Virus record (IMG/VR): IMGVR_UViG_3300014204_000137
Span: 1 to 64,000 of that record
DNA: 64,000 nt
Strand: one strand, 5' to 3'
DNA from: a virus
Lineage: Duplodnaviria; Caudoviricetes
In this document: piece by piece, positions 11,537 through 58,976 of the stretch
Position numbering within the stretch: the stretch's first letter is position 1
How the letters are laid out: each line of letters begins with the position of its first letter
Notes under the pieces: model-generated
The model's input: only the letters and a program-made list of their open reading frames with translations
Database searches by the model: none
What the model was told of the DNA's origin: nothing
Made by a program: the position numbers and the translations under genes

Positions 11537-11581
11537 TTGAAGACGTATCGATAAATTTTTATTATTTTCAAGGAGATCTCA

Positions 11582-12184: not shown

Positions 12185-12185
12185 A

Positions 12186-13293: not shown

Positions 13294-13307
13294 GGGAGGT
13301 GTGAGAA

Positions 13308-13565
13308 ATGGCAGTAAGAACTTATTCAAATCCAAAAGTAGTTTCGCCAAAGACAGTAACAAGTTTGAAGCAAGGGATACTTTTTGAGATGGCAGCAACA
13401 ACAGATGATACAGTAGTGGTAAATGAATTGGCAGCAGTTACAGCCGCTGTAGCTTTTAAGGCTTCTGATGCAACAGCAGTCGACGTTACAGTTTTAGGAA
13501 AGACGATTACAGTGACGGAGGAATCATTAACGAACGAAAAACTTATCGTATTAGCTTTAGGTTAA
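13308..13565 (+). CDS. Small virion structural protein (decoration-like)
   Basis: 85 aa, Ala/Val/Thr-rich, strong RBS gggaggt. Confidence 0.5.
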   Translation: MAVRTYSNPKVVSPKTVTSLKQGILFEMAATTDDTVVVNELAAVTAAVAFKASDATAVDVTVLGKTITVTEESLTNEKLIVLALG

Positions 13566-13600
13566 GCTAACGAATAAACATTAAAGGGAGGTGTTAAAAA

Positions 13601-26459: not shown

Positions 26460-27221
26460 ATGATTTATAAATTTTCAGTAGGAAAAGCAACTCTAACATC
26501 TCTACAAACTGGTTACGTGAAAGTAGTTGACGTAGCTACTTCCATAGAGTTTAATTATGACATGACTACTATAAAGGAAGTAGGACCCGATGGAATACCT
26601 ACTGATGAGATTAAGGATGAAGAGAAAATCACTCTTTCTTTTGAATTTACTGATGACGTAGATACTGCTTTAATCGCAGGACAGACGTATGACATAGTTT
26701 TAACTCCTGGAGTAGAAGGAGGAGGAATATCTCTATCGTTAGAGAATTGTCGTCTAACAAATTATAATGTACGTACCTCTCAAAACAATTTCGTAGCAAT
26801 ACGAGTAAGCTTTTCAAAAGTAGGTCCTATAGATTCAGGAACAGCTACAAAACAGCAAATTGCTTTTGGTGGAGTAGCCTTAGGCGATTCTGCTTATCTA
26901 GTTCCTTCATATCAAGGAAACGTTATCAATAGAATTATCCCTACTGCGTTAGGAACAATCTTTCAAACGACTGGACAAACTGGTGGAGGATTAACAACCA
27001 TAAAAGTAAAAGCCAGAGTCAAAAAATCTACCCGCTTAGAATTAGAGCAATACGTAACAAACCTATTTAGTATACTGAGTACAAGTAAAGCCAGTCTAGT
27101 AGTTTCTCAAGGAGTAACCTCTTATACTTTAACAAACTGCATTTACGTAAATGGTAGTATGCATGACATATATAAAAATTACGTAGAGATGGAATTCGAA
27201 TTCCAACGTTCTTCCTATTAA
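26460..27221 (+). CDS. Tail-tube paralog with a second beta domain (Dit/tube-initiator-like)
   Basis: N-terminal half aligns with 13601..13969 (YKFSVGK; G.EGGG; Y.V...Q..FV). Confidence 0.65.
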   Translation: MIYKFSVGKATLTSLQTGYVKVVDVATSIEFNYDMTTIKEVGPDGIPTDEIKDEEKITLSFEFTDDVDTALIAGQTYDIVLTPGVEGGGISLSLENCRLTNYNVRTSQNNFVAIRVSFSKVGPIDSGTATKQQIAFGGVALGDSAYLVPSYQGNVINRIIPTALGTIFQTTGQTGGGLTTIKVKARVKKSTRLELEQYVTNLFSILSTSKASLVVSQGVTSYTLTNCIYVNGSMHDIYKNYVEMEFEFQRSSY

Positions 27222-30486: not shown

Positions 30487-30504
30487 TTTATTTTAAAATC
30501 ACCC

Positions 30505-30533
30505 TTGATTTTTTAGCAATTGTAACATATAAT
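30505..30533 (+). promoter_or_regulatory. Sigma70-type early promoter
   Basis: TTGATT-17-TATAAT. Confidence 0.85.
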
Positions 30534-30554
30534 TATATTGAGGAGATAAAAGAG

Positions 30555-30842
30555 ATGTCAAACTTATATGAACACCGCTGTAAAGTTTGCGACGCAATAG
30601 CACCCGAAGGACAAGAACTTTGTACCTTCTGCCAAGCACTAAAAGATCAACCTTCAAAAAAGGAAGTGAAAAAGAAAGTAGTTAAGAAAAAGGAATCTTT
30701 ACCCAACACTATAAAATTAACGTGTACTGTATGTAAGAAGGAGTACGAGGTGAGAGCTTCTCACAAGGAACTCTATACGGAAGAAGTAAAAGCAAAATGG
30801 GTATGCATTAGATGCTCATTTAAGAAAGAGGATCACAAATGA
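30555..30842 (+). CDS. Zn-finger hypothetical protein
   Basis: Four CxxC pairs. Confidence 0.7.
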   Translation: MSNLYEHRCKVCDAIAPEGQELCTFCQALKDQPSKKEVKKKVVKKKESLPNTIKLTCTVCKKEYEVRASHKELYTEEVKAKWVCIRCSFKKEDHK

Positions 30843-31126
30843 ATACGTTAATAGAGACGATTAAGGATAGTGTACGCAAAAAGTTAACGACTCAAAATTT
30901 ATCGGGAGCACTTTTACATCTCGATGAGTTAATGCATACTCACAGAATTACAACCACCCAACATAAAGAGTTACAGGATTGGGTTTTAACAATTAAGGAT
31001 AAAAAGTTTGAGTTTTTAATGAGTGTAGGAGGAATACGTAAGTACAAATGTTTTGGATGTGGTCACGTAATTAATATTCCCCAATACCAGTTAATGGTAA
31101 AGTGTATGTATTGTGGACACTGCTAA
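30839..31126 (+). CDS. Hypothetical protein with C-terminal Zn ribbon
   Basis: CFGC..CMYC. Confidence 0.65.
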   Translation: MNTLIETIKDSVRKKLTTQNLSGALLHLDELMHTHRITTTQHKELQDWVLTIKDKKFEFLMSVGGIRKYKCFGCGHVINIPQYQLMVKCMYCGHC

Positions 31127-31154
31127 TTGAGAGATAATATAAAAAGGAGATACT

Positions 31155-31778: not shown

Positions 31779-32102
31779 ATGTCATACGAATCTAAGCACG
31801 CAAATGCAAAAGCGAAGTTGGATAAGATGTATAGTGAACTAGATGAGCGCTGTGGTTTTAAGGATGCAGTAAAAAAGAAAGAACTTGAGGAGAAAAAGAA
31901 CTCTCAGCATCAACCTCAAATACCCACCATATGTAAGACTTGCAATTGCCGCGCGTATAGATGTTGGAATGGATATAAGAGTAAAGGAATCTGTAGAGAG
32001 TTATCGTGTCAAGTTTATAGTGAAGATACAGCAGAAAAGAAAAGGTTGGAAGAGATTGCTGCCACGTTAAATAAGTTAGCAGGAATCGAACCTACAGAGT
32101 AA
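31779..32102 (+). CDS. Hypothetical protein
   Basis: ORF with RBS ggag; Cys cluster. Confidence 0.65.
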   Translation: MSYESKHANAKAKLDKMYSELDERCGFKDAVKKKELEEKKNSQHQPQIPTICKTCNCRAYRCWNGYKSKGICRELSCQVYSEDTAEKKRLEEIAATLNKLAGIEPTE

Positions 32103-32845
32103 TGAACAAAATAATTTTTGCGTTGAGTATTTTAGGCCTAGAAAAAACTGAGCATCACGTATGCAACCTTTTATTGGATTTGGTTACCAATGTACAATAT
32201 GGAGAAGTTCCTGGCAAAAATTTAAGGGGACTACTCGAATTAACAAAAGAGAAATTATTCGATGCTCTTGAAAAATTACAGACCTTAAATGTGATTAAGT
32301 ACGTCAGAGAACCTCTTCCAGATTCGGTATACATTAAAGCGGGCGAGGGCTTTTACATGTTTAATAGTCAATATAAAACGTGGAGACCGACAGAATCTTC
32401 TCTATTTTATAAAATTTGCAAACAATTGGGACATAGATTTACTGAAGAGAGCTATTTATATATTTTAGACAACTATAATATACGAGATGCAGTAGAAGCA
32501 CAAAAAAGTAATACAGAGGAAAGATTGATTCCATACCAACTATATGATATATTTTGCGAAAGATATAAAACAACCTTCCACAGAGAGTATCGCTCTACAA
32601 ACACCAATAGAGATCTGGCGTACATGAAGAAAGTATTATTTGAATGCAGCATGAAGAATTTAAAAGATTCTCAGATAAGAGAGTTTTTAGATTGGTCGTT
32701 CAGAGTAAAGACTAGAGATTTTAAGGGAGAGTTTTTGGTAGGTTTTCTTCCTCTATGCTTGAAGGATTATTTAGCTAGCACTCTAGTTGAAAAAACGAAT
32801 TCAAAATTTATTAAAGATGAGGATGGGAGACTTAAACTAAAATGA
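32102..32845 (+). CDS. Putative replication initiator/HTH protein
   Basis: N-terminal wHTH-like segment; coupled to primase-helicase. Confidence 0.45.
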   Translation: MNKIIFALSILGLEKTEHHVCNLLLDLVTNVQYGEVPGKNLRGLLELTKEKLFDALEKLQTLNVIKYVREPLPDSVYIKAGEGFYMFNSQYKTWRPTESSLFYKICKQLGHRFTEESYLYILDNYNIRDAVEAQKSNTEERLIPYQLYDIFCERYKTTFHREYRSTNTNRDLAYMKKVLFECSMKNLKDSQIREFLDWSFRVKTRDFKGEFLVGFLPLCLKDYLASTLVEKTNSKFIKDEDGRLKLK

Positions 32846-35435: not shown

Positions 35436-35762
35436 ATGGAATGTCCACGAAAAGATATGGAAAGCGATTATCCAGTAGAAAATTTTAGCGAACACGGAAG
35501 TGAGTGTAAACGCTGTACTAGTTATAGAAATTGCTTATTCTATAGTCAAAAAGCAGAAGAGGAGAAAATCGTGGATTCTGAAAAGAGAATACCTATTTAT
35601 AAAACTGCTGAGTATCAGGAAAGACAAACAACTTTCTTTAGAAGTCCCAAACTTACAGCAGATGACGTAGCTGATTTTAAGATCGATTTAAACACCAAGA
35701 ACATCATAAAGGAGTTAGAGAATGAAAATTCACACAGAAATAAAAATCGACGCAGCTCATAA
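35436..35762 (+). CDS. Hypothetical protein
   Basis: RBS ggagg; follows a GAGTTATAAT motif. Confidence 0.65.
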   Translation: MECPRKDMESDYPVENFSEHGSECKRCTSYRNCLFYSQKAEEEKIVDSEKRIPIYKTAEYQERQTTFFRSPKLTADDVADFKIDLNTKNIIKELENENSHRNKNRRSS

Positions 35763-36093
35763 ACTTCCCAACTACGTAGGTAAGTGTCATAACCTACATG
35801 GACACACTTGGAAGATTGTAGTAGAAATCGATGCAGACGAGTTAGACAAAAACGAGTTTGTAGTAGACTTCACCAAAGTGAAAGAAGTCGTTAACCAACT
35901 CGACCACGCATACATAAATGACTTCGTGGAGAATCCTACTGCAGAAAATATTGCTGTTTACCTAGCTAATCAAATCAAAAAGTTAGGTGACGTCTGGGAA
36001 GAATCTACTCCAGATAAAATAGTGAATAGGTTTAATTCGGTCACTATTAAAGTTTACGAAGCAGCAGAAAGTTTCGCTGAAGTAACTATTTGA
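35722..36093 (+). CDS. queD: 6-carboxy-5,6,7,8-tetrahydropterin synthase
   Basis: DAAHKL, GKCHNLHGHTW, VVDF, LDH, NPTAENIA. Confidence 0.95.
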   Translation: MKIHTEIKIDAAHKLPNYVGKCHNLHGHTWKIVVEIDADELDKNEFVVDFTKVKEVVNQLDHAYINDFVENPTAENIAVYLANQIKKLGDVWEESTPDKIVNRFNSVTIKVYEAAESFAEVTI

Positions 36094-36179
36094 CAGGAAA
36101 AACTCAGACCAGTTAGGTCACTCAAATAAACGTTCCTTCAGCTCAAAGGTTATTCAGCGAATATATTTAGGAGGGAATA

Positions 36180-36620
36180 GTGCGAGGTAGATATAGTTGG
36201 AGGCAGTTCGAAGAAGACTGCAAAGTACTTACAAAGAAGATCAAACGTAGTAAGTTTCAGCCAAAAACTATAGTTGCATTAGCTCGTGGTGGATTAACAT
36301 TAGGAGTAAAACTTTCGCACAGTTTACATACTCCATTAATGATAGTCTCTGCAAAAACATATAATGGTGAAAAACAATCTTTAAATACAGTACTTTTAAA
36401 TTCAAGTTATACTGTACCTCTTCAATCTCCAATCCTTATTCTAGATGAAATAGCCGATAGTGGAAAAACTTTAGCTGTAGTAATGGACCATTTTAAGAGT
36501 TTGGGAGTAATAGTAAAAACAGCTACAATACTCTATAAGAAGCATTCAGTAACAAAGCCAGACTATTATATAAAGGAAGTAGAAAACGAGAAGTGGATTG
36601 AGTTTCCCTGGGAGGCTTAA
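36180..36620 (+). CDS. Purine phosphoribosyltransferase (Gpt/XGPRT-like)
   Basis: ALARGG, ILDEIADSGKTL (PRPP-binding), PDYY, WIEFPWE. Confidence 0.9.
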   Translation: MRGRYSWRQFEEDCKVLTKKIKRSKFQPKTIVALARGGLTLGVKLSHSLHTPLMIVSAKTYNGEKQSLNTVLLNSSYTVPLQSPILILDEIADSGKTLAVVMDHFKSLGVIVKTATILYKKHSVTKPDYYIKEVENEKWIEFPWEA

Positions 36621-36967
36621 TGAATAAAAATACCCTGGTAGAAGAATTTTTAAAGTTAGATGAAGAATTAGAAAAAGAATCTAAAGAAGATATCCAACAT
36701 GATGACGTAAAACTTCATAGATTCTTTAATCTAATAGGTACTCCAGAAGTTCAAAATTATTTAGGAGATGAGTATCATAAAGATGGAGGACAATTTTATA
36801 TAGGAGATAAAGTACGTTCCATTAAAATTCACCAAACAGGTTGGGAAGAAGCAATCGTAGTTAAATACTCCGGACGTCCTCTTATTATTGTTAAACCATT
36901 TAATTATTTTACAGATCCAAACTCTACCTGTGTAGCAAATGAAGAAGAAATAGAAAGAGTAAAATGA
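36620..36967 (+). CDS. Hypothetical protein
   Basis: Translationally coupled ORF; F.IGDKV (SH3/KOW-like). Confidence 0.6.
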   Translation: MNKNTLVEEFLKLDEELEKESKEDIQHDDVKLHRFFNLIGTPEVQNYLGDEYHKDGGQFYIGDKVRSIKIHQTGWEEAIVVKYSGRPLIIVKPFNYFTDPNSTCVANEEEIERVK

Positions 36968-37221
36968 AAAATTATCAAATAGTAACTGATCCAATTCTTT
37001 TGAAGGGAAAATATTTTGAAATAATAGATGGAAAATTTTTCGATAGATGTGCTATGATTACGCATGCCTTTTTTGCATATTCCAATCCTAAAATGCTAGT
37101 TATTAGGTGCTACCCAGATAGATTAATAATGGAGTATGATCTATTACCGAATGAAGAGGGAAAATATAACTTAGAGAGGGTACATGAACATATCAGAGAT
37201 TTTTGTAGCTCTTCAAGGTGA
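36964..37221 (+). CDS. Hypothetical protein
   Basis: Coupled ORF, 85 aa. Confidence 0.55.
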   Translation: MKNYQIVTDPILLKGKYFEIIDGKFFDRCAMITHAFFAYSNPKMLVIRCYPDRLIMEYDLLPNEEGKYNLERVHEHIRDFCSSSR

Positions 37222-37828
37222 GGGAAGATTTCAAGGAACTCCTGTACTTTTTATAAGAACGTCAGGATGTACAAGAGCTTGTTCGTGGTGTGATACAAAA
37301 TATCATACGGAAGGAAAAGAGATTAGCATAGTAGAATTAAAAAGCACTATCAAGAGAATAGTCTGTACAGGAACTACTACAGTTGTATGGACAGGTGGTG
37401 AACCTCTAATGCAACTAAAAGAAATTTTAGAAGTTATGAAAAGACTTCCAACAGATATTAAATGGCATTTAGAAACGAATGGTGATTTAATAACTGACGA
37501 TCACGTTTACAGAACACTATCGAAACATTTTAATTATATTGCAATAAGTCCCAAATGTCTTAAAACTGGTTCAGCAGTTTATAATCTTCGACAAAGGTAC
37601 GTACCAAATAATGAAGATGCCCTAGTAGATATTAAAGTAGTGACTGATCTAGAAAAAATAAATACGGAGTTAGTATTTTTTGCTACATCTCTAATGCCTT
37701 ATACTACATATAATAGAGAAGTAGACGACGAAGTACGTAAGAAAGTTTGGATGTATTGTGTAGAACATAATCTACATTATAGTGCGCGTCTTCATACTCT
37801 TAATTTTGGTAACAAGAGAGGTGTATAA
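37184..37828 (+). CDS. queE: 7-carboxy-7-deazaguanine synthase (radical SAM)
   Basis: EIF..LQGEG, GCTRACSWCDT, TGGEP, LETNG, ISPK, RLH. Confidence 0.95.
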   Translation: MNISEIFVALQGEGRFQGTPVLFIRTSGCTRACSWCDTKYHTEGKEISIVELKSTIKRIVCTGTTTVVWTGGEPLMQLKEILEVMKRLPTDIKWHLETNGDLITDDHVYRTLSKHFNYIAISPKCLKTGSAVYNLRQRYVPNNEDALVDIKVVTDLEKINTELVFFATSLMPYTTYNREVDDEVRKKVWMYCVEHNLHYSARLHTLNFGNKRGV

Positions 37829-38142
37829 TGATATGTAGAGTGTGTGATCAAGAAATAACTGAGAACGGAACAAAAAAATTAAACATAGACGTTCATGAAG
37901 GTTGCAAAGATTTTGTAGTTTATTATGAAAATAAATCTGATATGGATTACGTTCGATGTCACGGAAACGTAATTGATCTTGTTCCATCATTTATTAATGG
38001 ATGGCTAAAAGGAGTAGGAAAATGTCCTAAGTGTGGAAAATTATATGTAACTGATAGATTTCCAGATAACCCTAAACCACGTAAACTTAAATTGCCAGAT
38101 CCACCATCGGCAGAAAAGAGATCATCAAATGCAATACAATAA
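37828..38142 (+). CDS. Hypothetical Zn-binding protein
   Basis: CRVC..H.GC, CPKCG. Confidence 0.6.
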   Translation: MICRVCDQEITENGTKKLNIDVHEGCKDFVVYYENKSDMDYVRCHGNVIDLVPSFINGWLKGVGKCPKCGKLYVTDRFPDNPKPRKLKLPDPPSAEKRSSNAIQ

Positions 38143-39019
38143 AGGAAAATTACCAGACGTTCAAAAAACGAAAATCAAAGATACTGCTATCTCCAGCGTA
38201 GGAGAAGAGAATATTGATTTTCAATTTAAGGTGTATAGAAAAAATCGAAAAGATTTTGTAGCAACCGCAGCTAAAGTAGACGTGTATCATTGGCTACAAG
38301 GAAATCGAAAAGGCACCAACATGTCTAGAATTATGGAAGTACTAATGGCTGGAAGAGAAAAGCCACTCGATAAGAAAAATTTAAAATTACTATTAATGGA
38401 CATGATTACTAGTTTAGAGAGAAAAGAACCAAAAGAGCCTAAAGTTCTAGTAAAGGACGTCTACATAGCTATTCGATTTACATACTTTATGGAGAAGGAG
38501 GCACCATATTCAAAAAAGGTAGGATTATTGGGATATGATTGTGCATTTTATGGTAAGTTAATGCGTACTAATAGTCCAGATAAGTTTTTATTTACACATG
38601 CTATTGAAGTAAATGTTCCAGTAACTTCTCTGTGTCCATGCTCTAAAGAGATTTCAAAATATGGTGCTCATAACCAAAGGAGTAAAATATCTGTAACTGT
38701 ACAACTTAAACCAGATCGTACTCTATGGCTAGAAGATCTGATACAGTTAATAGAAAAGCAAGGATCTTGCGAAATCTACTCTCTTCTGAAAAGGGACGAT
38801 GAGAGAGTAGTTACTGAACGCGCATACGAAAATCCAAACTTCGTAGAAGATATGGTTAGAAAAGCTCGTAGAGCATGCGAAACTTTAAATGAAGTTAAAG
38901 CTTTTAAGGTAGGTGTAGTAAATTATGAGAGTATTCATACTCATAACGCTGTAGCACATATGAAACGAATAAGAAAAGGACGTATATGGATATCACCATA
39001 CAAAAAGGATATACTCTAA
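38129..39019 (+). CDS. folE2: GTP cyclohydrolase I type IB
   Basis: LPDVQ, KGTNMSR, TSLCPCSKEIS..GAHNQRS, LLKRDDE, NPNFVED, ESIH.HNA. Confidence 0.95.
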   Translation: MQYNKGKLPDVQKTKIKDTAISSVGEENIDFQFKVYRKNRKDFVATAAKVDVYHWLQGNRKGTNMSRIMEVLMAGREKPLDKKNLKLLLMDMITSLERKEPKEPKVLVKDVYIAIRFTYFMEKEAPYSKKVGLLGYDCAFYGKLMRTNSPDKFLFTHAIEVNVPVTSLCPCSKEISKYGAHNQRSKISVTVQLKPDRTLWLEDLIQLIEKQGSCEIYSLLKRDDERVVTERAYENPNFVEDMVRKARRACETLNEVKAFKVGVVNYESIHTHNAVAHMKRIRKGRIWISPYKKDIL

Positions 39020-39483
39020 TGCAGCCCAAACTCATCAATAAGATTTACTTAGCAGGACCTCTTGAAGGGAGAACTGCAAAAGAAAGATTTGCGTGGAGAG
39101 ATTACGCAACAGATTACTTGAAGGATTATGGTATTGAAACATATATTCCTGGAGAAGATCTAACTCTAAATGACGCTCATTCAATCACAATTTTAGACTA
39201 TGCCATGATTGATAATTCAGAAGCGTTGTTAGTTAATTTAACTTGTCTTGGTGAGAATACTCCTACCAATACAGGTACACTTATTGAAATAGGTTATGCG
39301 AAGAAAGCAGGAAAACTCATTATTGCATACACCAATAGCGAGTGGCAGAGAGAGAACAGATTCTTAAAAGGAACTGTGGATATGATTTTTAATAAATCAT
39401 TCTTTAATGGAGATCCACTTCAATCTGCATTAGATTACATAGCAAGTTTTAACAAACGAAGGAGGAACGAAAGTGAAGTATAA
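39019..39483 (+). CDS. Nucleoside 2-deoxyribosyltransferase / dNMP N-glycosidase family
   Basis: KIYLAGP, D..MID.SE, GTLIEIGYA. Confidence 0.85.
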   Translation: MQPKLINKIYLAGPLEGRTAKERFAWRDYATDYLKDYGIETYIPGEDLTLNDAHSITILDYAMIDNSEALLVNLTCLGENTPTNTGTLIEIGYAKKAGKLIIAYTNSEWQRENRFLKGTVDMIFNKSFFNGDPLQSALDYIASFNKRRRNESEV

Positions 39484-39739
39484 ACATCAGAAAGATTTCA
39501 AAAAGTTTATTGGAATGATGCAAACAGGATTAGAGCATGGACAAGAGAAATATGGTGATACTGGACTATTTGGTGACTCTCAACTAGAGATGATTGAAGA
39601 AGAATTGCGCGATGTAGCTTCATACGCATATTTACTTTTCTTGAAGATACAGATGCTAAAAAGACGTATGGTTAAGATAACTGACCTAAAAGAGATAACA
39701 GGAAAGATCAGTAAAAACAAATTCAAAAAAGGAGTTTAG
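39473..39739 (+). CDS. MazG-like all-alpha NTP pyrophosphatase (putative)
   Basis: GQEKYG...EEELRD...Y. Confidence 0.5.
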   Translation: MKYKHQKDFKKFIGMMQTGLEHGQEKYGDTGLFGDSQLEMIEEELRDVASYAYLLFLKIQMLKRRMVKITDLKEITGKISKNKFKKGV

Positions 39740-39740
39740 G

Positions 39741-40187
39741 ATGCGTATCCGAATGGTGTTTGGTGGAATTCTAAAGTTCAAAAAATTAGTTAAGGAAGCA
39801 AAGATAACTTATCCAGTAATGCAAAGTGATGTTGGATATGACATGTGCTCAATAGAAGATAAAGTTATTAAACCAAGTACCAGTGAAATAGTTCATACAG
39901 GACTGGCTTTTGAGATTCCAGAAGATTATTATGCTCTTGTTAGAACACGTTCTGGATACGGAGTCAAAAACTCTCTTCAACTACATCATGGACTAATTGA
40001 TCCCGGGTACAGAAACGAAATTACTGTGTGCATTTATAATCATAGTGCGACTGAGTACAGAGTTTCTAAAGGAGATAAAGTTGCTCAACTAGTTATTCTA
40101 CCACGTATAGTACTACCCCTAAAAGAAGTTTCAGAGTTACATCCTTCAGAACGAAATCTTAAAGGACTAGGATCTACAGGTAGGTAA
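39741..40187 (+). CDS. dut: Trimeric dUTPase
   Basis: GYD, RSG, GLIDPGYRNEI, GDKVAQ, R..KGLGSTG. Confidence 0.95.
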   Translation: MRIRMVFGGILKFKKLVKEAKITYPVMQSDVGYDMCSIEDKVIKPSTSEIVHTGLAFEIPEDYYALVRTRSGYGVKNSLQLHHGLIDPGYRNEITVCIYNHSATEYRVSKGDKVAQLVILPRIVLPLKEVSELHPSERNLKGLGSTGR

Positions 40188-40188
40188 T

Positions 40189-41352
40189 ATGAAATCTAAT
40201 AAGAAGCTATTTTGGATTTTTGCTTTATCTGCCTCCGTATATTTCACTCAGGGCATAGAGGGTCTCCCAGGACAAGCATTTTTCTACTACCTTAAAGAAA
40301 CTCTAAAATTTAGTCCATCCACAATCATGTATTTAGGTACCATAACTGGTATCGCTTGGTTGATAAAACCAATTTGGGGATATGTGATGGACGTCTTCAA
40401 ACTTAAAAAACGTACCTGGATTTTACTAGCACTAGCACTAGACCTTATTATTGCCGCGTTTATAGGTTTATGGGCAATACCAGTAGCTATAATAATTGCA
40501 TTGATGACTATAAAATCTACTAACGCAGCATTTAGGGATGTAGCCGTTGACGGTATAATGGTAGTAGAAGGACAGAAAAATAATTGCTGTGGACGCATCC
40601 AATCAATTCAATGGATGGCAATTTCAATAGCTAGCATTTTAACTGGTATTACAGGAGGATATATTGCTGAGAAGTTTAATTATCAGTTAGGATACCTTCT
40701 TCTTATACCCATATTTATTTTAGTCGCAATTCCAGCACTATTCTATAAAGAAAAACCCAAGACTAGAGAAAAATTTAAAGTTGAGAAGATCAAAAAGTTG
40801 TTTAAAGATAAGAGGTATTTAATAGGGGGTATATTATTTATGTTCTTTTACTGCTACAGTCCTAGTTTTGGAACACCTCTCCTATTTATACAGAGGGATG
40901 AGTTTCATTGGTCTAAACTATTTATAGGAGTATTAGGCACAGTATTATCCGCGTTAGAAATTTTAGGTGCAATTGTTTACTATAAATTTAGCAAGAAGTT
41001 GAATGTACGAAAGTGGTTATTGTTTTCAGTTTTTCTAGGAGCCTCTACTACAATGTGTTATCTTTACTACACACCATTCACTGCAATCGTATACGCGGTA
41101 GTATTCTGCATAGTAGGTATGTTTATCCACCTCATTCTCTTAGATTATGTTGCTAGAATATGTCCTAAAGGATTAGAGACAACAGCATTCGCGTTGTTAT
41201 GTAGCGTGATGAATATCGCAGGAACAGTCTCTAGCTTAACAGGAGCAGCTCTTCTTCCAATAGTAGGATTAAAGCCTCTTATAGTAATTTCAGCTCTTAC
41301 GAGCTTTTTATGTTTGGCGTTCATTAAATACGTTAAGGTGGAGACTACATAA
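40189..41352 (+). CDS. MFS transporter, folate-biopterin (BT1/FBT)-like
   Basis: About 12 hydrophobic helices; YFTQG, YYLKE.L, W.IKP.WG...D, DVAVDG..V, QS..W, CPKGLE.T.FALL. Confidence 0.8.
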   Translation: MKSNKKLFWIFALSASVYFTQGIEGLPGQAFFYYLKETLKFSPSTIMYLGTITGIAWLIKPIWGYVMDVFKLKKRTWILLALALDLIIAAFIGLWAIPVAIIIALMTIKSTNAAFRDVAVDGIMVVEGQKNNCCGRIQSIQWMAISIASILTGITGGYIAEKFNYQLGYLLLIPIFILVAIPALFYKEKPKTREKFKVEKIKKLFKDKRYLIGGILFMFFYCYSPSFGTPLLFIQRDEFHWSKLFIGVLGTVLSALEILGAIVYYKFSKKLNVRKWLLFSVFLGASTTMCYLYYTPFTAIVYAVVFCIVGMFIHLILLDYVARICPKGLETTAFALLCSVMNIAGTVSSLTGAALLPIVGLKPLIVISALTSFLCLAFIKYVKVETT

Positions 41353-41907
41353 ATGGGTCCCATAGAGCAAAAAGCCAGAGAGATTTTAAAAGATTTCGAA
41401 GATAAAATAGACCAACCTGCATCCTTATCTGGATTATACCATAAGGGAGAGTCTATGCGGGATCATCTAGAAATGACTACTAGTATTATGAAGCACTTAT
41501 GCGACGCTTATAACATTAAACCAGAAGAACGAGATATGTTAATAGCTTGTTGCCTTTTACATGACATAGGTAAATTTCCCATATCCAGAAAAGGATTTAT
41601 TGAAGGACAAATAAAAGAAGGATGGCTGTATTATGAAGCAACAGGTTGGAGCAGAATAGAAAAACGTATGAAAGAGCATCCAACTCTTTCGGCAGAAATT
41701 ATAGAGAAGTACGGCATACCTAGAAAAGAAGAGATCAAGAGAATCGTGAGTAGACATATGGCTCATTGGTATAAGAATTCTCCACAACCAGAAATGATGT
41801 ACGATTATATGCTGGTAACAGCTGATTATTTAAGTACTCGCCAAGAAGACCTCTATAAGTATGTAGAACGTACTAGCGAGTTTATTAAGAAACCTTCTGA
41901 GGGATAA
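41353..41907 (+). CDS. HD-domain phosphohydrolase
   Basis: H..., LLHDIGK, HP, HM, ADY.S. Confidence 0.85.
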   Translation: MGPIEQKAREILKDFEDKIDQPASLSGLYHKGESMRDHLEMTTSIMKHLCDAYNIKPEERDMLIACCLLHDIGKFPISRKGFIEGQIKEGWLYYEATGWSRIEKRMKEHPTLSAEIIEKYGIPRKEEIKRIVSRHMAHWYKNSPQPEMMYDYMLVTADYLSTRQEDLYKYVERTSEFIKKPSEG

Positions 41908-41915
41908 TATAATTA

Positions 41916-44522
41916 ATGGAAACCACAAAACCTGAGAATTGTATAAAGTGTAAGTTGCATCTAACTAGTTGTGTAACGTCTAGTTTGAACGGACCTACTA
42001 GCGCATACAAGGTAATGGGTACTGGATCAACTACTGCAAAAATTATGTTGATAGGAGAAGCACTAGGTCAACAAGAAGCGTTAACTGGAATACCTTTTAC
42101 AGGATCTGCGGGAAAGCTTTTAAATGATGCATTAGAAAAAGCAGGTCTTACTAGAAACGAATGCTATTTAACAAATGTGATTAAATGTCGCCCACCTGAG
42201 AATAGATCTCCATCAAAAGCAGAATGTAAATTATGCTTACCATTCCTTCTAGAAGAGATAAAAACAGTTAAACCAAAAGTAATAGGATTATTAGGTAGCA
42301 CTTCCTTGGAGATAATTGCAAAACTAAAAGGAATATCTAGAATTCGTGGAAACGTATTTGATATAGATATAGAAGGAGTCATTTATAAAATTATCCCTAT
42401 TTGGCATCCAGCGTATGTTTTAAGATTTCCAGAATTGACAAATTTAAAAGACGAATTGGTGAAGGACTTAAAACTTGCAAAAGAGGTTAGCGAAAAAGAG
42501 AATTACGTAAAAACAAAAACACCAGTTAGATATGAATTAGTGGAAGATGAAAAAGACGTAGAGAAGGTATTTGCATATCTAGAAAAGATTAAACTTAAGA
42601 AAATTGTATCATACGATATCGAGACAACAGGTTTTAATTTTCTGAAAGATGAAATTCTTAGTATAGCGTTGAGTTGTGAGGAAAACGAAGGAATATGCAT
42701 GACTGGCAGTATTTATTATAATTTAGTTTTACCTAAATTAAAATCGATACTAGAATCTCCAGAGATACTAAAAATAGCGCACAATTTAAAATTTGATAAT
42801 AAATTTTTAAAGACTAGTGGAATAAACGTAAAACTGCCATTATCAGATACTATGTTGAGTCACTATTTATTGGATGAGAATAGTACCCACGGACTAAAAG
42901 AACTCGCTTGGAAATATACAGATATGGGTGGATACGATGATGGAGTAGATTACAAAGAGTTTACCCACGAAAAGTTTTATAGTGATGCTGAATTTAGAAA
43001 AAAGATTATGACTTATAACGTTAGCGATACTGATTGTACGTTACGACTATATTCAATATTTAAACCAGAACTTATAAAAGAAAAGTTGGATAAGGTTAAC
43101 GAGTGTATTTTGATTCCACTCTCTCAAGTATTTTTAGAGACTGAGTATGATGGTGTACCATTAGATATTGAGTACATGGATAAATTAGAAAAAGAAATTG
43201 ACGCTAAAATTGCCGATATAGAATTTCGTATGCTAAATTCAATAGAGATTAAAACTTCTGAAAAACTTATTAATACTGTTGACATCAAAGTAGATAATGT
43301 AGTAGTAGAACGTAAAATTATACCGCCCGAAGATAAAAAGTACAAAAAATTTAACTTAAAGTCTACTCACGATTTACAAGTATTACTGTATAAGGTATTA
43401 AATTTGCACGCACTCAAACAAACAAAAACAGGATATTCTACTGATAAAGAATCTATGGATTACTTGCAGGGTAAACATCCTTTCGTAGATTTATTGTTAC
43501 AGTATCGTGGAATTACACACGACAAGTCTGCGTACATAGTTCAGATGAGAAACAATTTGGATAGTAGGGGTAGAGTGCATACTGATTATGGTTTACACAA
43601 AGCAGTTACGGGTAGACCTCAATCCGCTGAACCTAATCTTCAAAATATTCCGCGTACATCACATATCAAGAGACTTTTTATAGCTGAACCTGGATGCCTA
43701 CTTTTATCTGCAGATTATAAACAGATCGAATATCGAGTATGGATAAATTTTGCAAATTCCAAAAAAGGGTTAGAAGATATAGCTAGAGGATTGGACATCC
43801 ATTCAGAAGTATGTTGTATGGTCTGGCCACAGCTATATAAAAAGGTATCAGAAGGACAGTATCAAGTAGTAGCCACAGGAGACATACTTAAAAAGATCGA
43901 TGGCAGAGATGATACTGCAATTCACGAACATCGTGTTAGTGCGAAGAACGTAGTGTTCGGAGTAATCTACGGAAGAGGAATTAAGAGTTTAATGGCTGAA
44001 TACAAATTATCTGAAGCTGAATGCAATAAGATTTGGACAAATTTTTTCGCTATGTATCCAGAAGCAGAACAGTGGTTAGAAAATCAAAAGAAGTTTGTAA
44101 AAAAATATAAGTATGTCAAAAATATGTTTGGTAGGATACGGCGACTTCCTGAAATAGATAGTAATGAAGAGGAGTTTAGAGCAACTGCTATTAGACAATC
44201 ATGCAACACTCCTGTCCAATCTTCTGCTAGTGATATCCTATCTACTGGTACTATCAGAATATTTAATTTGATAAAAAATAATAATATGAAGTCAAAATTG
44301 TTCTTTTCAATTCACGACGCTTTAAAATATAACGTACCATTGAGTGAGTTAGATATGGCAATACAAGTTATAACAAAAGGGATGGGAGATCCAATTCCTG
44401 GAGTAAACTTTCCTCTAGAGGTAGAATTTGAAATAGGTCCTTCGTGGGGAGAGATGATTGGATTAGAGGAGTTCAACGAAGACAGAGAGAAATATTTAAA
44501 ATTATGGAGGATATGCAAATGA
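41916..44522 (+). CDS. polA: Family A DNA polymerase with N-terminal family-4 uracil-DNA glycosylase domain and 3'-5' exonuclease
   Basis: CIKC, GEALG, KCRPPENR, HPAY (UDG); DIETTG, HNLKFD; PNLQNIPR, ADYKQIE, AKNVVFGVIYG, HDA. Confidence 0.95.
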   Translation: METTKPENCIKCKLHLTSCVTSSLNGPTSAYKVMGTGSTTAKIMLIGEALGQQEALTGIPFTGSAGKLLNDALEKAGLTRNECYLTNVIKCRPPENRSPSKAECKLCLPFLLEEIKTVKPKVIGLLGSTSLEIIAKLKGISRIRGNVFDIDIEGVIYKIIPIWHPAYVLRFPELTNLKDELVKDLKLAKEVSEKENYVKTKTPVRYELVEDEKDVEKVFAYLEKIKLKKIVSYDIETTGFNFLKDEILSIALSCEENEGICMTGSIYYNLVLPKLKSILESPEILKIAHNLKFDNKFLKTSGINVKLPLSDTMLSHYLLDENSTHGLKELAWKYTDMGGYDDGVDYKEFTHEKFYSDAEFRKKIMTYNVSDTDCTLRLYSIFKPELIKEKLDKVNECILIPLSQVFLETEYDGVPLDIEYMDKLEKEIDAKIADIEFRMLNSIEIKTSEKLINTVDIKVDNVVVERKIIPPEDKKYKKFNLKSTHDLQVLLYKVLNLHALKQTKTGYSTDKESMDYLQGKHPFVDLLLQYRGITHDKSAYIVQMRNNLDSRGRVHTDYGLHKAVTGRPQSAEPNLQNIPRTSHIKRLFIAEPGCLLLSADYKQIEYRVWINFANSKKGLEDIARGLDIHSEVCCMVWPQLYKKVSEGQYQVVATGDILKKIDGRDDTAIHEHRVSAKNVVFGVIYGRGIKSLMAEYKLSEAECNKIWTNFFAMYPEAEQWLENQKKFVKKYKYVKNMFGRIRRLPEIDSNEEEFRATAIRQSCNTPVQSSASDILSTGTIRIFNLIKNNNMKSKLFFSIHDALKYNVPLSELDMAIQVITKGMGDPIPGVNFPLEVEFEIGPSWGEMIGLEEFNEDREKYLKLWRICK

Positions 44523-45196
44523 AAAAAATAGTTGGAATAGTGAGTGGTGGTTTAGACAGCGTAGCTTTTGCAGCATCTAGAGTACAGCCAGGAGATGAAC
44601 TTTACGTACTAACTTTTAATTACGGTCAAAAAGCTAGCGCAGAAATTTTAGCAGCTCAAGAAGCATTAAAAGGAGTAGCTAAAGAATTTAAAGTACTAGA
44701 TATAACTTTCATGAAAAAGTTGTGGCCTAGAACACAATTAACTGATGACACAGTTAAAGTAGAAGATGGATACACCTCATCAGTAGTAGTCCCTATTAGG
44801 AATGCTGTATTTATTACAATTGGTACTGCATTTGGATATTCTATTGACGCAGACGAAGTTGTAACTGGTTCTCACTTAAGTGATTGTACGATAGATAATG
44901 GAGAACCTATGTATCCAGATTGTAGTCCAGAATTTACGGAAGCTATTCAAACAGCATTGCATTTAGGACACTTTAGAAAACATAGAAAAATTAAAATCCT
45001 TAATCCTGCTGTTTTAGGAATGTCAAAGGCAGATATAGTTAGAGCAGGGTATCCTGTATTAGGCGATAGTATATTCAAAACTTGGAGTTGTTACTCCACT
45101 GGAGAAAAACAATGCGGTCATTGCGAAAGCTGTAATAATAGAAAAACAGCTTTTAGATTAGCGCAAGTAGTAGATAAGACTCATTATCAGAGTTGA
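44519..45196 (+). CDS. queC: 7-cyano-7-deazaguanine (preQ0) synthase
   Basis: SGGLDS, YGQ, VPIRN, YPDC, TWSCY, CGHCESC; start at ATG 44519 overlapping the polA stop. Confidence 0.95.
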   Translation: MKKIVGIVSGGLDSVAFAASRVQPGDELYVLTFNYGQKASAEILAAQEALKGVAKEFKVLDITFMKKLWPRTQLTDDTVKVEDGYTSSVVVPIRNAVFITIGTAFGYSIDADEVVTGSHLSDCTIDNGEPMYPDCSPEFTEAIQTALHLGHFRKHRKIKILNPAVLGMSKADIVRAGYPVLGDSIFKTWSCYSTGEKQCGHCESCNNRKTAFRLAQVVDKTHYQS

Positions 45197-45664: not shown

Positions 45665-46441
45665 ATGGACGAATTATGGAATTATAACGTCGAGTTGAAG
45701 CAATTAAAAGTAGTTGACGATCACGGAAATATCCTTAGCAATCGTTTAGCTACTGTCGAACCAGAAACTGGAAGAGTTATAGGAATCGTGACTCCTCGCT
45801 TTAAACTTATTCAAAATAAAACCCTCTACGATGTGATGCAGCAAGTAGGAGAACGTTTAGGGTTGAAATTGAATACAGTTCACGTCTGTCGCAATAAAGC
45901 CCTTACCAGTTTTAGATATGGATTCGCAAAACAAGAAGTAGCTGTTGAGAGTGGAGAGAAAGATGATGTAGTACGATTTGGGGTTGACGTCATCAACACT
46001 TTTGACGGAGGATTGTTTTCGAAACGTATTCAATTTACTGCCGATAGGTTAGCATGTTTAAATGGAATGACCCTACCAAGAGAAATAGGTCGTATCTCCT
46101 TAAATAACCTTTCAGTAGACGAAGGTAGTTTCGCGCGTGTAGTAGAAGGACGAATCAAACCAGTTCTTGAAACTGCACACGTATGGAACGAATGGGCAAA
46201 GTTTACTCCCAACAGATTAAAGGTTGGAGAGTTTATTAGCAAGAAGTTGCCCTCAAAGGTCAGCGCGGATCTTTTAAATAGGTTCGATGCAGGAAGAGAT
46301 AGAACACTTTGGGGATTGTACAATTTAGTAACGTTTTACGCAACACACGAACTTAAGACACGTACACCTGAAAATTTAAGGTTACGTCAAATGGAGTTGG
46401 CGTCAGTAGAGAACTCTTTTTATAATACTGATTTTAAATAA
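45665..46441 (+). CDS. DUF932-family protein
   Basis: GIVT..F.LIQN, NTFDG, RLACLNG, TLWGLYN.VT. Confidence 0.8.
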   Translation: MDELWNYNVELKQLKVVDDHGNILSNRLATVEPETGRVIGIVTPRFKLIQNKTLYDVMQQVGERLGLKLNTVHVCRNKALTSFRYGFAKQEVAVESGEKDDVVRFGVDVINTFDGGLFSKRIQFTADRLACLNGMTLPREIGRISLNNLSVDEGSFARVVEGRIKPVLETAHVWNEWAKFTPNRLKVGEFISKKLPSKVSADLLNRFDAGRDRTLWGLYNLVTFYATHELKTRTPENLRLRQMELASVENSFYNTDFK

Positions 46442-53373: not shown

Positions 53374-53517
53374 AAAAGACTACTGTTGGGACCGTACCGG
53401 AACAGAAATGCGCGCATAAAATCCAAACGGTGACAGCTAGGAGAGACTGCACAATATCAGAAGCAGAGTTAGATAGAGAATTTTCAAGAGGTTTACCAGG
53501 AATGAGGGAGAGTGATT

Positions 53518-54168
53518 ATGATTAATTCGTACTTAGATTACACTGATCTTAATCTAGCGAAGCCATCTAAAGAAGTAATGGAATCAGTTAAGGATGCCAT
53601 CTTCTTGAACTGTTATGGCTTTTGTACATATATTAGCAACCACTTCTTAGTAGATAAGGTAGTAACTAGAGCGAATAGTCAGATCAAAAAGATTTATGTG
53701 GTGGGATTTCCGCAGGGAACCATGCGAGAGTATAGACGAGATCTCTCTCATATTGAATATTGTAACGCAGATGAGATTGATGTCGTATTACCAGCATACT
53801 TTCATTTTGACAAACTTATTAGAGCATCAAAGATGTTAAGTGCAGTACGAAAGTTAACTAAAGGAAAGGTTTTGAAAGTAATTATCGAGACCACTCTTTT
53901 AGACGAGAAGGGTATTTTTTCAGCAGTACGTTTAGTAGAAGATGTTGGAGGAGATTATATCAAAACCAATACGGGATTCATCCACACTAGAAGAACTCGT
54001 ACATTAGTGGAGGATGTTAAATTAATCAAGGAGTATACCAAACTACCTATTAAAGCGTCAGGGGGTATCCGCGATTATTCTCTAGCTAAAGAATTAGTAG
54101 ACGCAGGAGTTTCTAGAATAGGTACATCCTCAGCAAGACAAATCATTGATGGGGAGAAAGCGAGTTAA
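53518..54168 (+). CDS. deoC: Deoxyribose-phosphate aldolase
   Basis: VGFP.G, ADEID.V, KVIIET, IKTNTGF, KASGGIR, RIGTSS. Confidence 0.9.
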   Translation: MINSYLDYTDLNLAKPSKEVMESVKDAIFLNCYGFCTYISNHFLVDKVVTRANSQIKKIYVVGFPQGTMREYRRDLSHIEYCNADEIDVVLPAYFHFDKLIRASKMLSAVRKLTKGKVLKVIIETTLLDEKGIFSAVRLVEDVGGDYIKTNTGFIHTRRTRTLVEDVKLIKEYTKLPIKASGGIRDYSLAKELVDAGVSRIGTSSARQIIDGEKAS

Positions 54169-54170
54169 CA

Positions 54171-54713
54171 ATGTTGGAGAAGATGGCTGTAAGAGATAAA
54201 GTTGTGACGTATCTCGCCGGACCCATGGAAGGTGTTACAGCAGATAACGCAGTTGAGTGGAGAGATAGAATTACCCCAAAACTAAAAGAGTTTTTTGGCG
54301 ACAACATTATAACTGTAGATCCATGCAAGACAGAATCTGCTAAGTTAGAAGGACTAGTAGAAGAAGGGATGGACTTAAAGGATTCAAAAAAGATCATGAA
54401 GGGATGGAAAGATACTGGTAAGTGGCGTCAGTTTGATACTGCTATGAAACGAATTAGAGAAGCAGATTTAAAAGCAGTTAGAGATTCCGACTTCATCATA
54501 GTCTACTTAGATTTCAAAATCATTATGGGTGGAACTATTTCTGAAGTAGAACACGCATACGATTGGGGAATTCCAATCTACGCAGTCATCAAAGAACCCT
54601 CTGCTGCTAATAGTTGGGTGCTAGGTACAGTTCGACAAGGTGGAAGATATTTTCCAAACTTCACTCAATTACTAGAAGCGGTAACGAAAGATTATGTGAG
54701 GTTCAAAAAATGA
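54171..54713 (+). CDS. Second nucleoside 2-deoxyribosyltransferase / N-glycosidase family protein
   Basis: YLAGPM, DLKAVRDSD, GGTISEVEHA. Confidence 0.8.
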   Translation: MLEKMAVRDKVVTYLAGPMEGVTADNAVEWRDRITPKLKEFFGDNIITVDPCKTESAKLEGLVEEGMDLKDSKKIMKGWKDTGKWRQFDTAMKRIREADLKAVRDSDFIIVYLDFKIIMGGTISEVEHAYDWGIPIYAVIKEPSAANSWVLGTVRQGGRYFPNFTQLLEAVTKDYVRFKK

Positions 54714-55093
54714 ACTTGAAAATTACTATTCTTAGAGAAGGCGATGATGGACGAGGAAATATCATTACACCCGATGCTTGCAAAAGTTTAGTAGAACGAT
54801 TTAACAAAACTCCCGAGAAGATGTTTATCAAGTTAGGAGGAACCCCAATTAAGTTCGGCACTGTTAATTCATTGCAGCATGATGAAGAGAAGAGAGAAGT
54901 AGTAGGAGAAGTAGACCTTCATCTAGACTTTTCTATAGGAGGTAGAGTAGTATCTGATATTCAACTACCTCACGGAAGAAGCATTGTTGATTGCGAGTTA
55001 AAAGGTATCATAGCAACACTTACAGGAGGAACATTCCAAAATGGACAAGCAAGCGACGATTCAAAAAATAACAAAGATAGTGGAGGAGTTTAA
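54710..55093 (+). CDS. Degenerate prohead-protease-fold protein (putative)
   Basis: IITPDA, FSIGGRV and I.D.EL resemble 8466..9833; lacks the FYEH histidine. Confidence 0.45.
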   Translation: MNLKITILREGDDGRGNIITPDACKSLVERFNKTPEKMFIKLGGTPIKFGTVNSLQHDEEKREVVGEVDLHLDFSIGGRVVSDIQLPHGRSIVDCELKGIIATLTGGTFQNGQASDDSKNNKDSGGV

Positions 55094-55418
55094 AGGACAT
55101 CCTGAGTTTCTCAACATCGTAGTTGAAATGCTTGAGCTGCATAGCAGAAAGTCTAACGACTACGCCTCTGAAGAAAGTCCCTTTTCAAATATAGAACTTT
55201 GTGAACGAGCAAAATTTGACGCGTGGAAAGGAGTCATCATACGTTTAGGAGATAAGTACTCCAGACTACTAAATGCTCTAGCGGGTAAACTATTTAAGTG
55301 CGAAGGGGTAGAGGACGCTTTCCTAGATAACGCTTGCTACTCCATCATAGGACTTATTGAGTATAGAAAAGCACAACAGCAAAAAATAACTGGAGCTACT
55401 GGTCCAGCAAAGAGGTAA
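55041..55418 (+). CDS. Nucleotide-modification-associated domain (DUF1599/Nmad1-like)
   Basis: KSNDY, GVIIRLGDKYSRL, EDAFLD.ACY.II. Confidence 0.8.
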   Translation: MDKQATIQKITKIVEEFKGHPEFLNIVVEMLELHSRKSNDYASEESPFSNIELCERAKFDAWKGVIIRLGDKYSRLLNALAGKLFKCEGVEDAFLDNACYSIIGLIEYRKAQQQKITGATGPAKR

Positions 55419-57733: not shown

Positions 57734-58312
57734 ATGAGTGATTTACGAGATTTAAAAGCGATCGAAAGAAGAAAACAAGTCCGAAAATATATACGTCAAA
57801 GATTGACGCAAGTCGAGATGGCTGAGAAACTTCAAGTAGATGTTACTACTATCTCAGATGATGTAGCAGTTATTCGTAGAGAAAATATTTATAACATACT
57901 ATCTAATAAAGAATTAATAGAAAAAGACACCAAGAGTATCCTAGAGTCTATCAACCAATTAAATGAAATAGACGCAGAATGCTGGAAAATTTACTATGGC
58001 GGTTTTATTATAAAAAAGAAAGATGAAAAAGGTAACCCTATAGACGTAGAAATTCCGCTAGATCCAAAAACAAAATTAGACGCATTATCTCACATAGAGG
58101 CTAATTTAAAACGACGTTGCGAACTCTTGAAATTAATAAGTCCTCAACAGATTACTATAGAGAAGATGGTATACGTAGAAAAAATGATTCCTATTGTAAT
58201 GCAAAAGTATACAGAAATAGTTTTAGAATACGTACCTAAAGAGAAGCAAGTAGAACTTTTAGACAAGTTAATGACAATTGATATTGAAGGAATGACCCTC
58301 GATGGAAAATAA
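57734..58312 (+). CDS. Terminase small subunit (putative)
   Basis: N-terminal HTH (RR..V, TQVEMAEKLQVDVTTISDD); upstream of the large subunit. Confidence 0.65.
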   Translation: MSDLRDLKAIERRKQVRKYIRQRLTQVEMAEKLQVDVTTISDDVAVIRRENIYNILSNKELIEKDTKSILESINQLNEIDAECWKIYYGGFIIKKKDEKGNPIDVEIPLDPKTKLDALSHIEANLKRRCELLKLISPQQITIEKMVYVEKMIPIVMQKYTEIVLEYVPKEKQVELLDKLMTIDIEGMTLDGK

Positions 58313-58976
58313 AGAATTAAGTGATGTACAAGATCAAATAGTTGAACTCAAAAAGAAAGAAGCAGAATTGCTTAAGACTACTAAGGAAAAGTTTTCTGTA
58401 AAAAAGGCTTTAAGTTCTTTTAACATCTTAGATCCAATTGCTTGGATGAAATGGTTTTCGGGAGCATTTAGAACAGTAATAGTTTTAGCTTTAGTAGTAG
58501 CTTTAATATTCAGTGCAGGATACTTTAAGGGAGTAGGAGATAAACCAATTAATGTAGGATATAAAGATTTTACTGCTCAAGTAAAAGCAAAGGATGGTAC
58601 TGTTCATACTGTTTCAGTTAAAGGAGGAATACTTTACTTTGATAAGCAAGTTGTGCATGGACATGATGTTAAAGAGTTGGAACAGTTTGGAATTAAAATA
58701 CGTCCCAAAGTATTTTTTGGAATGGGTACTGCTTTAGAACCAGAAATAGGGGCGGGATTTCAATTACTCAAGTATCAGAAATTTAATTTAGATCTCTTTG
58801 GAACTCAAAAGGCTTTATATGTAGGAGTTTCTTACGACTTAGATTTTAGTGGTACTGCAGGTACGCTTATTCAAAATTCTAGTGTAGGTATTGCTGTAGG
58901 AAAGTCTTGGAACAGCATGTTCGGAGATGACACCAACGACAACAGAGTTTTATTGTATTGGTCAGTAAAGTTTTAG
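58302..58976 (+). CDS. Membrane protein: TM helix plus amphipathic beta-strand C-terminus ending in Phe
   Basis: VIVLALVVALIFSAGY; ...YVGVSYD...VGIAVG...VLLYWSVKF. Confidence 0.6.
   Translation: MENKELSDVQDQIVELKKKEAELLKTTKEKFSVKKALSSFNILDPIAWMKWFSGAFRTVIVLALVVALIFSAGYFKGVGDKPINVGYKDFTAQVKAKDGTVHTVSVKGGILYFDKQVVHGHDVKELEQFGIKIRPKVFFGMGTALEPEIGAGFQLLKYQKFNLDLFGTQKALYVGVSYDLDFSGTAGTLIQNSSVGIAVGKSWNSMFGDDTNDNRVLLYWSVKF

Follow-up and report, generated by a model that had tools for sequence, protein, structure and literature searches.

How might a phage that encodes the entire route from GTP to preQ0 place a 7-deazaguanine in its DNA without a recognisable DpdA transglycosylase? The question is raised by the replication operon of an uncultured phage, IMGVR_UViG_3300014204_000137, whose record is 98,585 bp long; the window, the stretch of DNA in which the operon was first described, is its first 64 kb. 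Cui et al. (2023; PMC10516641) put DpdA forward as the hallmark of all 7-deazaguanine DNA systems, and a route through modified dGTP was previously proposed for DpdA-less phages (PMC6884629). How some phages come to have 100% of their G replaced is still without explanation. The original prediction, made from the window alone, described preQ0 genes interleaved with nucleotide-metabolism genes and a polymerase, recognised no DpdA, and proposed that preQ0 reaches the DNA through the nucleotide pool. Its observation was confirmed in part, with the absence of DpdA now extended to the whole record, and the sequence comparisons below lend its interpretation partial support.

In this phage the GTP-to-preQ0 pathway (FolE2, QueD, QueE and QueC) has all its steps, with genes that are intact and coupled in translation to that of DNA polymerase A (PolA). 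Its genes belong to an unbroken plus-strand run between 35.7 and 45.2 kb, with ends overlapping or abutting, in the order QueD, a small phosphoribosyltransferase (PRTase), two small open reading frames (ORFs), QueE, a small ORF, FolE2, a nucleoside 2'-deoxyribosyltransferase (NDT)-family protein, an 88-aa ORF, dUTPase, a BT1/major facilitator superfamily (MFS) transporter, an HD-domain protein, PolA and QueC (Table 1). All of the named genes had been listed in the original prediction, the transporter without its family, and were borne out by Pfam, and the overlap it reported between the polymerase stop and the queC start is a shared ATGA at 44519-44522. This overlap, together with a QueC N-terminus that reads MKKIVGIVSGGLDS, identifies the true QueC as 44519-45196 rather than a longer GTG-initiated ORF. 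As in the original prediction, neither QueF nor Gat-QueC was seen in the ORFs scanned. FolE2 homologues are rare in cultured phages (3 of 50,697 records), yet FolE2 is present throughout the clade to which this phage belongs.

DpdA was sought across the whole record, with subfamilies DpdA1-4 each represented by a positive control. The Pfam TGT profile (PF01702) proved useless as a detector: in genome searches and with hmmscan alike, it missed DpdA3 of phiST, DpdA1 of 9g, DpdA2 of nt-1 and the DpdA of Erebus, and because all phage DpdA controls were missed, its negative result in this phage carries no weight. Subfamily profiles performed as required, phrog_887 and phrog_7068 finding DpdA1 of 9g and Erebus, phrog_10773 finding DpdA2 of nt-1 and PF20314 finding DpdA4 of HVTV-1; none of them found anything in this phage. 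For DpdA3, a hidden Markov model (HMM) built from 120 homologues of phiST CGPG_00065 was run on six-frame ORFs, and orthologues from close relatives served as further queries. The controls (phiST and the relatives L004, L006, L007 and L009) scored 1e-27 to 1e-122, and this phage gave nothing better than 0.18. Nor did tblastn reveal remnants of DpdA3 or of the DCD-like gene that accompanies it in the sister phages L004 and L007. In these sisters the pair lies between the ligase and sigma genes; it is absent here, where the syntenic site holds only two 95-aa ORFs. Alignment of single ORFs with the DpdA3 profile by hhalign was without power, since the DpdA1, DpdA2 and DpdA4 controls failed as well.

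We also considered whether a DpdA might be hidden among the larger ORFs. Nearly all ORFs of at least about 190 aa were assigned or examined, except for a few in the head and tail modules, and none was transglycosylase-like. The ORF at 26460-27221 is tail-tube-like, that at 58302-58976 is beta-rich, and that at 53512-54168 is a genuine deoxyribose-phosphate aldolase (DERA). The ORF at 32102-32845 is conserved in DpdA3-bearing relatives and lacks similarity to DpdA3 or to PDB chains, and the DUF932 protein (45665-46441) likewise occurs in DpdA3-bearing relatives. None of the remaining large ORFs examined resembles a TIM-barrel transglycosylase. The record of this phage thus contains no recognisable DpdA1-4, and the earlier statement that the window lacks a TGT/DpdA-like ORF holds for all 98,585 bp.

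Comparison with relatives placed this absence in context. PolA homologues at 47-58% identity form a well-supported clade, in which this phage is sister (100/100) to DpdA3-bearing L004 and L007 (PolA identity 57-58%). Searches of IMG/VR with PolA or NDT returned no relatives, and a metagenome scan for relatives yielded short fragments only. L006 and the outgroup L009 also carry DpdA3. In L004 and L007, neither QueC nor a BT1 transporter nor an HD gene of full length was seen; in L004 the HD gene is truncated or split (105 aa and 72 aa, at 15100-15580) and follows RuvC rather than preceding PolA. The order dUTPase...BT1-HD-PolA...QueC seen here recurs in L104, while HD and QueC are both found in L105 and in the P0013 contig, and the L008-type phages (L008/L102/L103) combine Gat-QueC with a BT1 orthologue (49% identity in L103) and with a PF18909 MazZ-like gene adjoining the HD gene. 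DpdA1-4 were not seen in L104, L105, the L008-type phages or the P0013 contig within the 12-38 kb visible. In general, members of the clade have either QueC or Gat-QueC without DpdA3, usually with HD and in three lineages with BT1, or DpdA3 without QueC, a pattern that persists over long divergence. Recurrence of the DpdA3-less QueC/Gat-QueC state in these four other diverged lineages speaks for an arrangement that functions and is kept by selection. Gat-QueC in phages is otherwise known only from DNA dG+ systems (PMC6884629). We would argue from the intact polymerase-coupled operon and the recurrent DpdA3-less state that the module works without DpdA3.

We tentatively favour, at a probability of about 40%, the reading that this is a module of the DpdA3 lineage from which DpdA3 was lost and whose preQ0 is still delivered to DNA, at the nucleotide level. 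In such a scheme, DpdA3 and its DCD-like neighbour would have been lost from this lineage, and the GTP-to-preQ0 pathway would have been retained, co-translated with the replicative polymerase. The PRTase would join preQ0 to phosphoribosyl pyrophosphate (PRPP), as TubE does with 7-carboxy-7-deazaguanine (CDG); alternatively, NDT might transfer preQ0 onto deoxyribose. Host kinases and a host reductase would carry the preQ0 nucleotide to the dNTP, which PolA would incorporate; host enzymes would be needed because the phage encodes no kinase, ribonucleotide reductase (RNR) or verified dGTPase. The NDT-like enzymes, DERA and the PRTase may in addition strip dG nucleotides and recycle guanine to GTP, feeding the pathway.

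A number of observations, set out in this and the following paragraphs, weigh against this reading, beginning with the PRTase. Its best PDB matches are the Pyrococcus horikoshii purine phosphoribosyltransferase 1vdm (1e-19), Sulfolobus GpT-1/2 and E. coli XGPRT, which points to a 6-oxopurine-type enzyme of the XGPRT/archaeal Gpt kind; it is a candidate 7-deazaguanine or guanine PRTase. The suggestion in the original prediction that the PRTase or NDT attaches preQ0 to a sugar phosphate has, for the PRTase, a precedent in TubE, a PF00156 PRTase that ribosylates a 7-deazaguanine by joining CDG to PRPP (PMC6112128). It is weakened by the sister phages, since L004 and L007 have the same core of QueD, PRTase, QueE, FolE2, NDT, 88-aa ORF, dUTPase and PolA alongside DpdA3. 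The family to which the PRTase belongs (phrog_8995, which includes phiST CGPG_00045) has homologues in 13 of 50,697 cultured-phage records, namely the Cellulophaga phiST group, the Flavobacterium immuto phages, Synechococcus phage BUCT-ZZ01, two Brevundimonas phages and one faecal contig. The phiST group and immuto phages are DpdA3 phages with 100% G replacement; BUCT-ZZ01 has the order QueE-PRTase-x-QueD-FolE, and in the Brevundimonas phages FolE-PRTase adjoins RNR and a dNMP kinase. Among the best 80 PRTase loci in IMG/VR, que genes lie at most 10 kb away in 45, and DpdA1, 2 or 3 is present in 40. When only the 41 loci of at least 16 kb were considered, 29 had que genes and 28 of these 29 also had DpdA1, 2 or 3. 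IMG/VR loci with PRTase and que genes and no DpdA were uninformative, being fragments of large phages that are 2-48% complete.

The small XGPRT-like PRTase often accompanies the 7-deazaguanine clusters of phages, and in nearly all cases DpdA1, 2 or 3 is there too. Neither Cui et al. 2023 (PMC10516641) nor Hutinet et al. 2019 (PMC6884629) mentions this companion, the term "phosphoribosyl" being absent from both. Because the PRTase and NDT coexist with DpdA3 in the sisters and the PRTase is nearly always found near a DpdA, neither is evidence for a DpdA substitute; PRTase, NDT, the 88-aa ORF, dUTPase and PolA have a role that in general is not to stand in for DpdA, and they could equally be read as a guanine-recycling branch. 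A broader proposal, that 7-deazaguanine enters phage DNA without DpdA by way of a TubE-like PRTase and/or NDT and then PolA, with the NDT-like enzymes, DERA and the PRTase recycling dG, and that this PRTase family, given its place beside DpdA1, 2 and 3 clusters and its presence in 100%-replacement phages, may be where complete replacement actually begins, is one that we regard as doubtful.

We then considered the proteins that might act on the nucleotide pool. NDT keeps the GTxxExG nucleophile motif and is conserved in all clade members, and its PDB matches to true NDTs are weak. An NDT gene also lies within the que cluster of the Aminobacter phage Erebus, which has DpdA1. Downstream of the operon, a DERA (53512-54168; PDB 1mzh, 1e-22; both Lys motifs present) is followed by a second NDT-like gene, NDT2 (54171-54713), whose PF05014 match of 2e-5 is under the cut-off. 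DERA and NDT2, a pair conserved across the clade, may form a branch that removes the base from dNMPs and then degrades deoxyribose-5-phosphate. The family of the HD protein is rare (82 matches among 1.84 billion representatives) with invariant residues H30, H38, H70, D71, H135 and D158. Both its profile and its AlphaFold2 model (pLDDT 93) are closest to the HD domain of the exonuclease YhaM; dNTPases match weakly, and a DatZ-like dNTPase or dGTPase is unsupported. What the original prediction called "MazG-like" is probably the 88-aa ORF, which carries the motif GQKKYGD...EEExRD. This ORF matched no MazG, MazZ or PDB chain: hhalign gave a probability of 0.6% against the relative's MazZ-like protein, nothing significant emerged against phiST MazG or the PDB, and its model was a low-confidence two-helix hairpin without a fold match. 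The ORF at 55041-55418 showed no significant similarity to MazG, a 134-aa ORF considered as MazG was likewise unsupported, and PF18909 had no match in the genome of this phage. With a YhaM-like HD protein and no verified MazG, the depletion of dGTP by HD and MazG enzymes that the original prediction put forward is unsupported here; a relative does have the MazZ-like and HD combination. In L103, a PF18909 dATP/dGTP diphosphohydrolase (MazZ-like, 1e-21) at 11678-12118 is directly followed by an HD protein, the pair ending at 12693.

This genome yielded neither a kinase for nucleosides or nucleotides nor RNR, and no dGTPase or MazG that could be verified. The earlier remark that a kinase and a reductase are lacking therefore holds generally, with one qualification: there is an AAA_33 kinase at 84546-85022, which is polynucleotide-kinase-like and adjoins an RNA ligase and was rejected as a nucleoside kinase. 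It forms part of an RNA-repair-like gene set at 84546-87090 that also includes a metallophosphatase, and its orthologue in L006 lies directly upstream of PolA.

Of the other explanations for a DpdA-less operon, post-replicative insertion by an unrecognised transglycosylase fares best, although we consider it rather unlikely. The enzyme could be a fifth, strongly divergent DpdA-like or NDT-fold protein, the product of an unassembled gene or a host DpdA, and the PRTase would recycle the released guanine, and guanine from degraded host DNA, to GMP and so to GTP for FolE2. There is a precedent: phages of this sort had been described as DpdA-less until HHpred, and only HHpred, brought their DpdA3 and DpdA4 to light (PMC10516641). 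The failure of PF01702 on every phage DpdA control shows how strongly these enzymes diverge, and the company that the PRTase keeps with DpdA1, 2 or 3 in 28 of the 29 large que-positive loci fits salvage. A CheckV completeness of 72% would also leave room for a missing gene. However, HMM and orthologue searches with working controls found nothing, and no DpdA-sized ORF without a function is specific to this phage, those examined being tail-tube-like or beta-rich, the DERA, or ORFs that DpdA3-bearing relatives also have. An unassembled gene is further disfavoured by the position of the record ends within the head module, in which the portal at 91.4 kb is followed across the ends by MuF, prohead protease and capsid at 2.8-10.9 kb. 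Since head genes run across the ends, a terminase-like ORF is present at 60.4 kb (its Terminase_6N match is weak) and similar short repeats lie near both ends (390-573 and 98426-98585; 77-100% identical), the record is probably near-complete despite the CheckV figure; the repeats suggest that assembly broke within a repeat of a circularly permuted genome. Few bacteria carry dpd islands, so that an entire phage lineage would be ill served by relying on a host DpdA.

The remaining alternative is that the DNA is unmodified and that, after loss of DpdA3, the pathway boosts queuosine in host tRNA, as Hutinet et al. proposed for phages with preQ0 genes and no DpdA (PMC6884629), or makes a free toyocamycin/tubercidin-like 7-deazapurine base or nucleotide moved by BT1, with PRTase, NDT and DERA in ordinary salvage. 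The joint presence of FolE/QueD/QueE/QueC with a PF00156 PRTase, a phosphohydrolase plus an MFS transporter, in the absence of DpdA, is indeed the signature by which deazapurine secondary-metabolite clusters are called. Yet this explanation is improbable, as the genes form part of a replication operon in which they are coupled to PolA, DNA-modifying DpdA3 phages are both the ancestors of the lineage and interleaved with it in the PolA tree, a relative carries Gat-QueC, which is not known to have a role in bacterial tRNA, and ToyE/F/G- or TubD/F-like tailoring enzymes were not found in the ORFs scanned with Pfam.

Delivery of preQ0 at the nucleotide level after loss of DpdA3 thus remains the reading we prefer, and the phage, while it does not prove a route through the nucleotide pool, provides a natural setting in which this unproven route can be put to the test. 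Lacking DpdA3 and having QueC, a full-length HD gene and BT1, it forms with its DpdA3-bearing sisters a set of matched natural comparisons for a DpdA-independent route. Activity of the PRTase on preQ0 or CDG would indicate a nucleotide-level branch, and activity on guanine only would indicate a salvage loop.

Table 1 Features of the preQ0-polymerase operon and associated sites in IMGVR_UViG_3300014204_000137
Feature	Position	Strand	Evidence or remark
Ligase-sigma site (DpdA3 and DCD-like gene in sisters)	30487..31154	+	Only two 95-aa ORFs here; synteny with L007 and L004
QueD (6-carboxytetrahydropterin synthase, PTPS family)	35722..36093	+	PF01242, 2e-25; 69% identity to L007 orthologue
PRTase, small type-I purine, 146 aa	36180..36620	+	PF00156, 4e-21
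Two small ORFs, 115 and 85 aa	36620..37221	+	No Pfam or PHROG match
QueE (7-carboxy-7-deazaguanine synthase, radical SAM)	37184..37828	+	PF04055, PF13353
104-aa ORF	37828..38142	+	No significant match
FolE2 (GTP cyclohydrolase IB)	38129..39019	+	PF02649, 3e-73
NDT family: nucleoside 2'-deoxyribosyltransferase or dNMP N-glycosidase	38986..39483	+	PF05014, 1e-11
Conserved 88-aa ORF	39473..39739	+	Motif given in text
dUTPase	39741..40187	+	PF00692, 1e-24
Folate-biopterin (BT1)/MFS transporter	40189..41352	+	PF03092, 7e-30
HD-domain phosphohydrolase (predicted)	41353..41907	+	PF01966
DNA polymerase A with N-terminal uracil-DNA glycosylase (UDG) and 3'-5' exonuclease domains	41916..44522	+	PF03167, PF01612, PF00476
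QueC (preQ0 synthase)	44519..45196	+	PF06508, 4e-46
DERA and second NDT-like gene (NDT2)	53512..54713	+	Pair conserved in relatives across the clade

The operon is preceded by genes for a ligase, a sigma factor, a conserved 247-aa protein and a primase-helicase, and is followed by DUF932, a single-stranded DNA-binding protein, RuvC, RecA, an SbcCD-like pair, DERA and NDT2. The nearest cultured relatives of PolA are the polymerases of SP-10/SPO1-like Bacillus phages, at about 31-33%. In L006, PolA (10001-13588) contains an intein within its UDG domain, and another intein/LAGLIDADG ORF lies upstream. The clusters of several relatives also encode a 230-270-aa protein with an N-terminal helix-turn-helix and a Trm1-like (N2-guanine) methyltransferase motif, ILDVYAG...DLDPYG. 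Its site varies (L105:5917-6708, L008:3369-4184, L006:4296-5042, L104:1746-2444, and also L099 and L100); in L006 it directly follows DpdA3, and it is absent from this phage, L004 and L007. The methyltransferase motif and helix-turn-helix, together with its absence here, led us to reject it as a transglycosylase; judged by the motif, it could further modify G or deazaguanine. The small-ORF region of this phage contains a GT1 glycosyltransferase (72146-73297) and a PF12224 amidoligase (89833-90495), enzyme types met in phage DNA-hypermodification pathways. Other small ORFs encode a dCMP deaminase, a YAcAr/SLOG-family protein, a pyrimidine-dimer DNA glycosylase and two methyltransferases.

Finally, we compared the operon with characterized systems. 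It is most readily set beside the DpdA3 systems of Cellulophaga phiST, Campylobacter CP220 and Flavobacterium immuto 2-6A (PMC10516641), in which FolE, QueD and QueE genes likewise adjoin a polymerase; the phiST and immuto phages share the same small PRTase family, and DpdA3 is present in the phages most closely related to this one. Unlike those systems, this phage lacks DpdA3 and has QueC, so that the product would be preQ0 rather than a CDG-derived base; it also has FolE2 instead of FolE, and NDT, a BT1 transporter and an HD gene within the cluster. With the DpdA1/DpdA2 preQ0 and dG+ systems of 9g, CAjan and nt-1 (PMC6884629) it shares a full preQ0 pathway including QueC, and its relative L008 has Gat-QueC as does 9g. 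Those phages, however, all encode DpdA beside the cluster, whereas none is detectable here by the same profiles. Z-genome (2-aminoadenine) phages encode PurZ, DatZ (an HD protein), MazZ and DpoZ, and this phage resembles them in setting genes for base biosynthesis among those for a PolA of its own and for an HD protein. The MazZ/DatZ pair is echoed in the relative L103, with its MazZ-like gene beside HD, and not in this phage, where HD is YhaM-like rather than DatZ-like, MazZ is missing and only candidates are available, PRTase and NDT as makers of a modified dNMP and PolA as the polymerase that would use it. The tubercidin and toyocamycin clusters, with their TubE/ToyH PRTase (PMC6112128), similarly lack DpdA and unite GTP-to-CDG/preQ0 genes with a PF00156 PRTase, a phosphohydrolase and an MFS transporter, the likeness of the PRTase being at family level (PF00156). 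They differ in that GMP reductase, adenylosuccinate synthetase/lyase and UbiD were not among the Pfam matches of the ORFs scanned here, and in that the context here is a phage replication operon. Taken together, the configuration is a variant of known phage 7-deazaguanine systems, and the companionship of the PRTase is newly noted relative to both earlier surveys (PMC10516641, PMC6884629).

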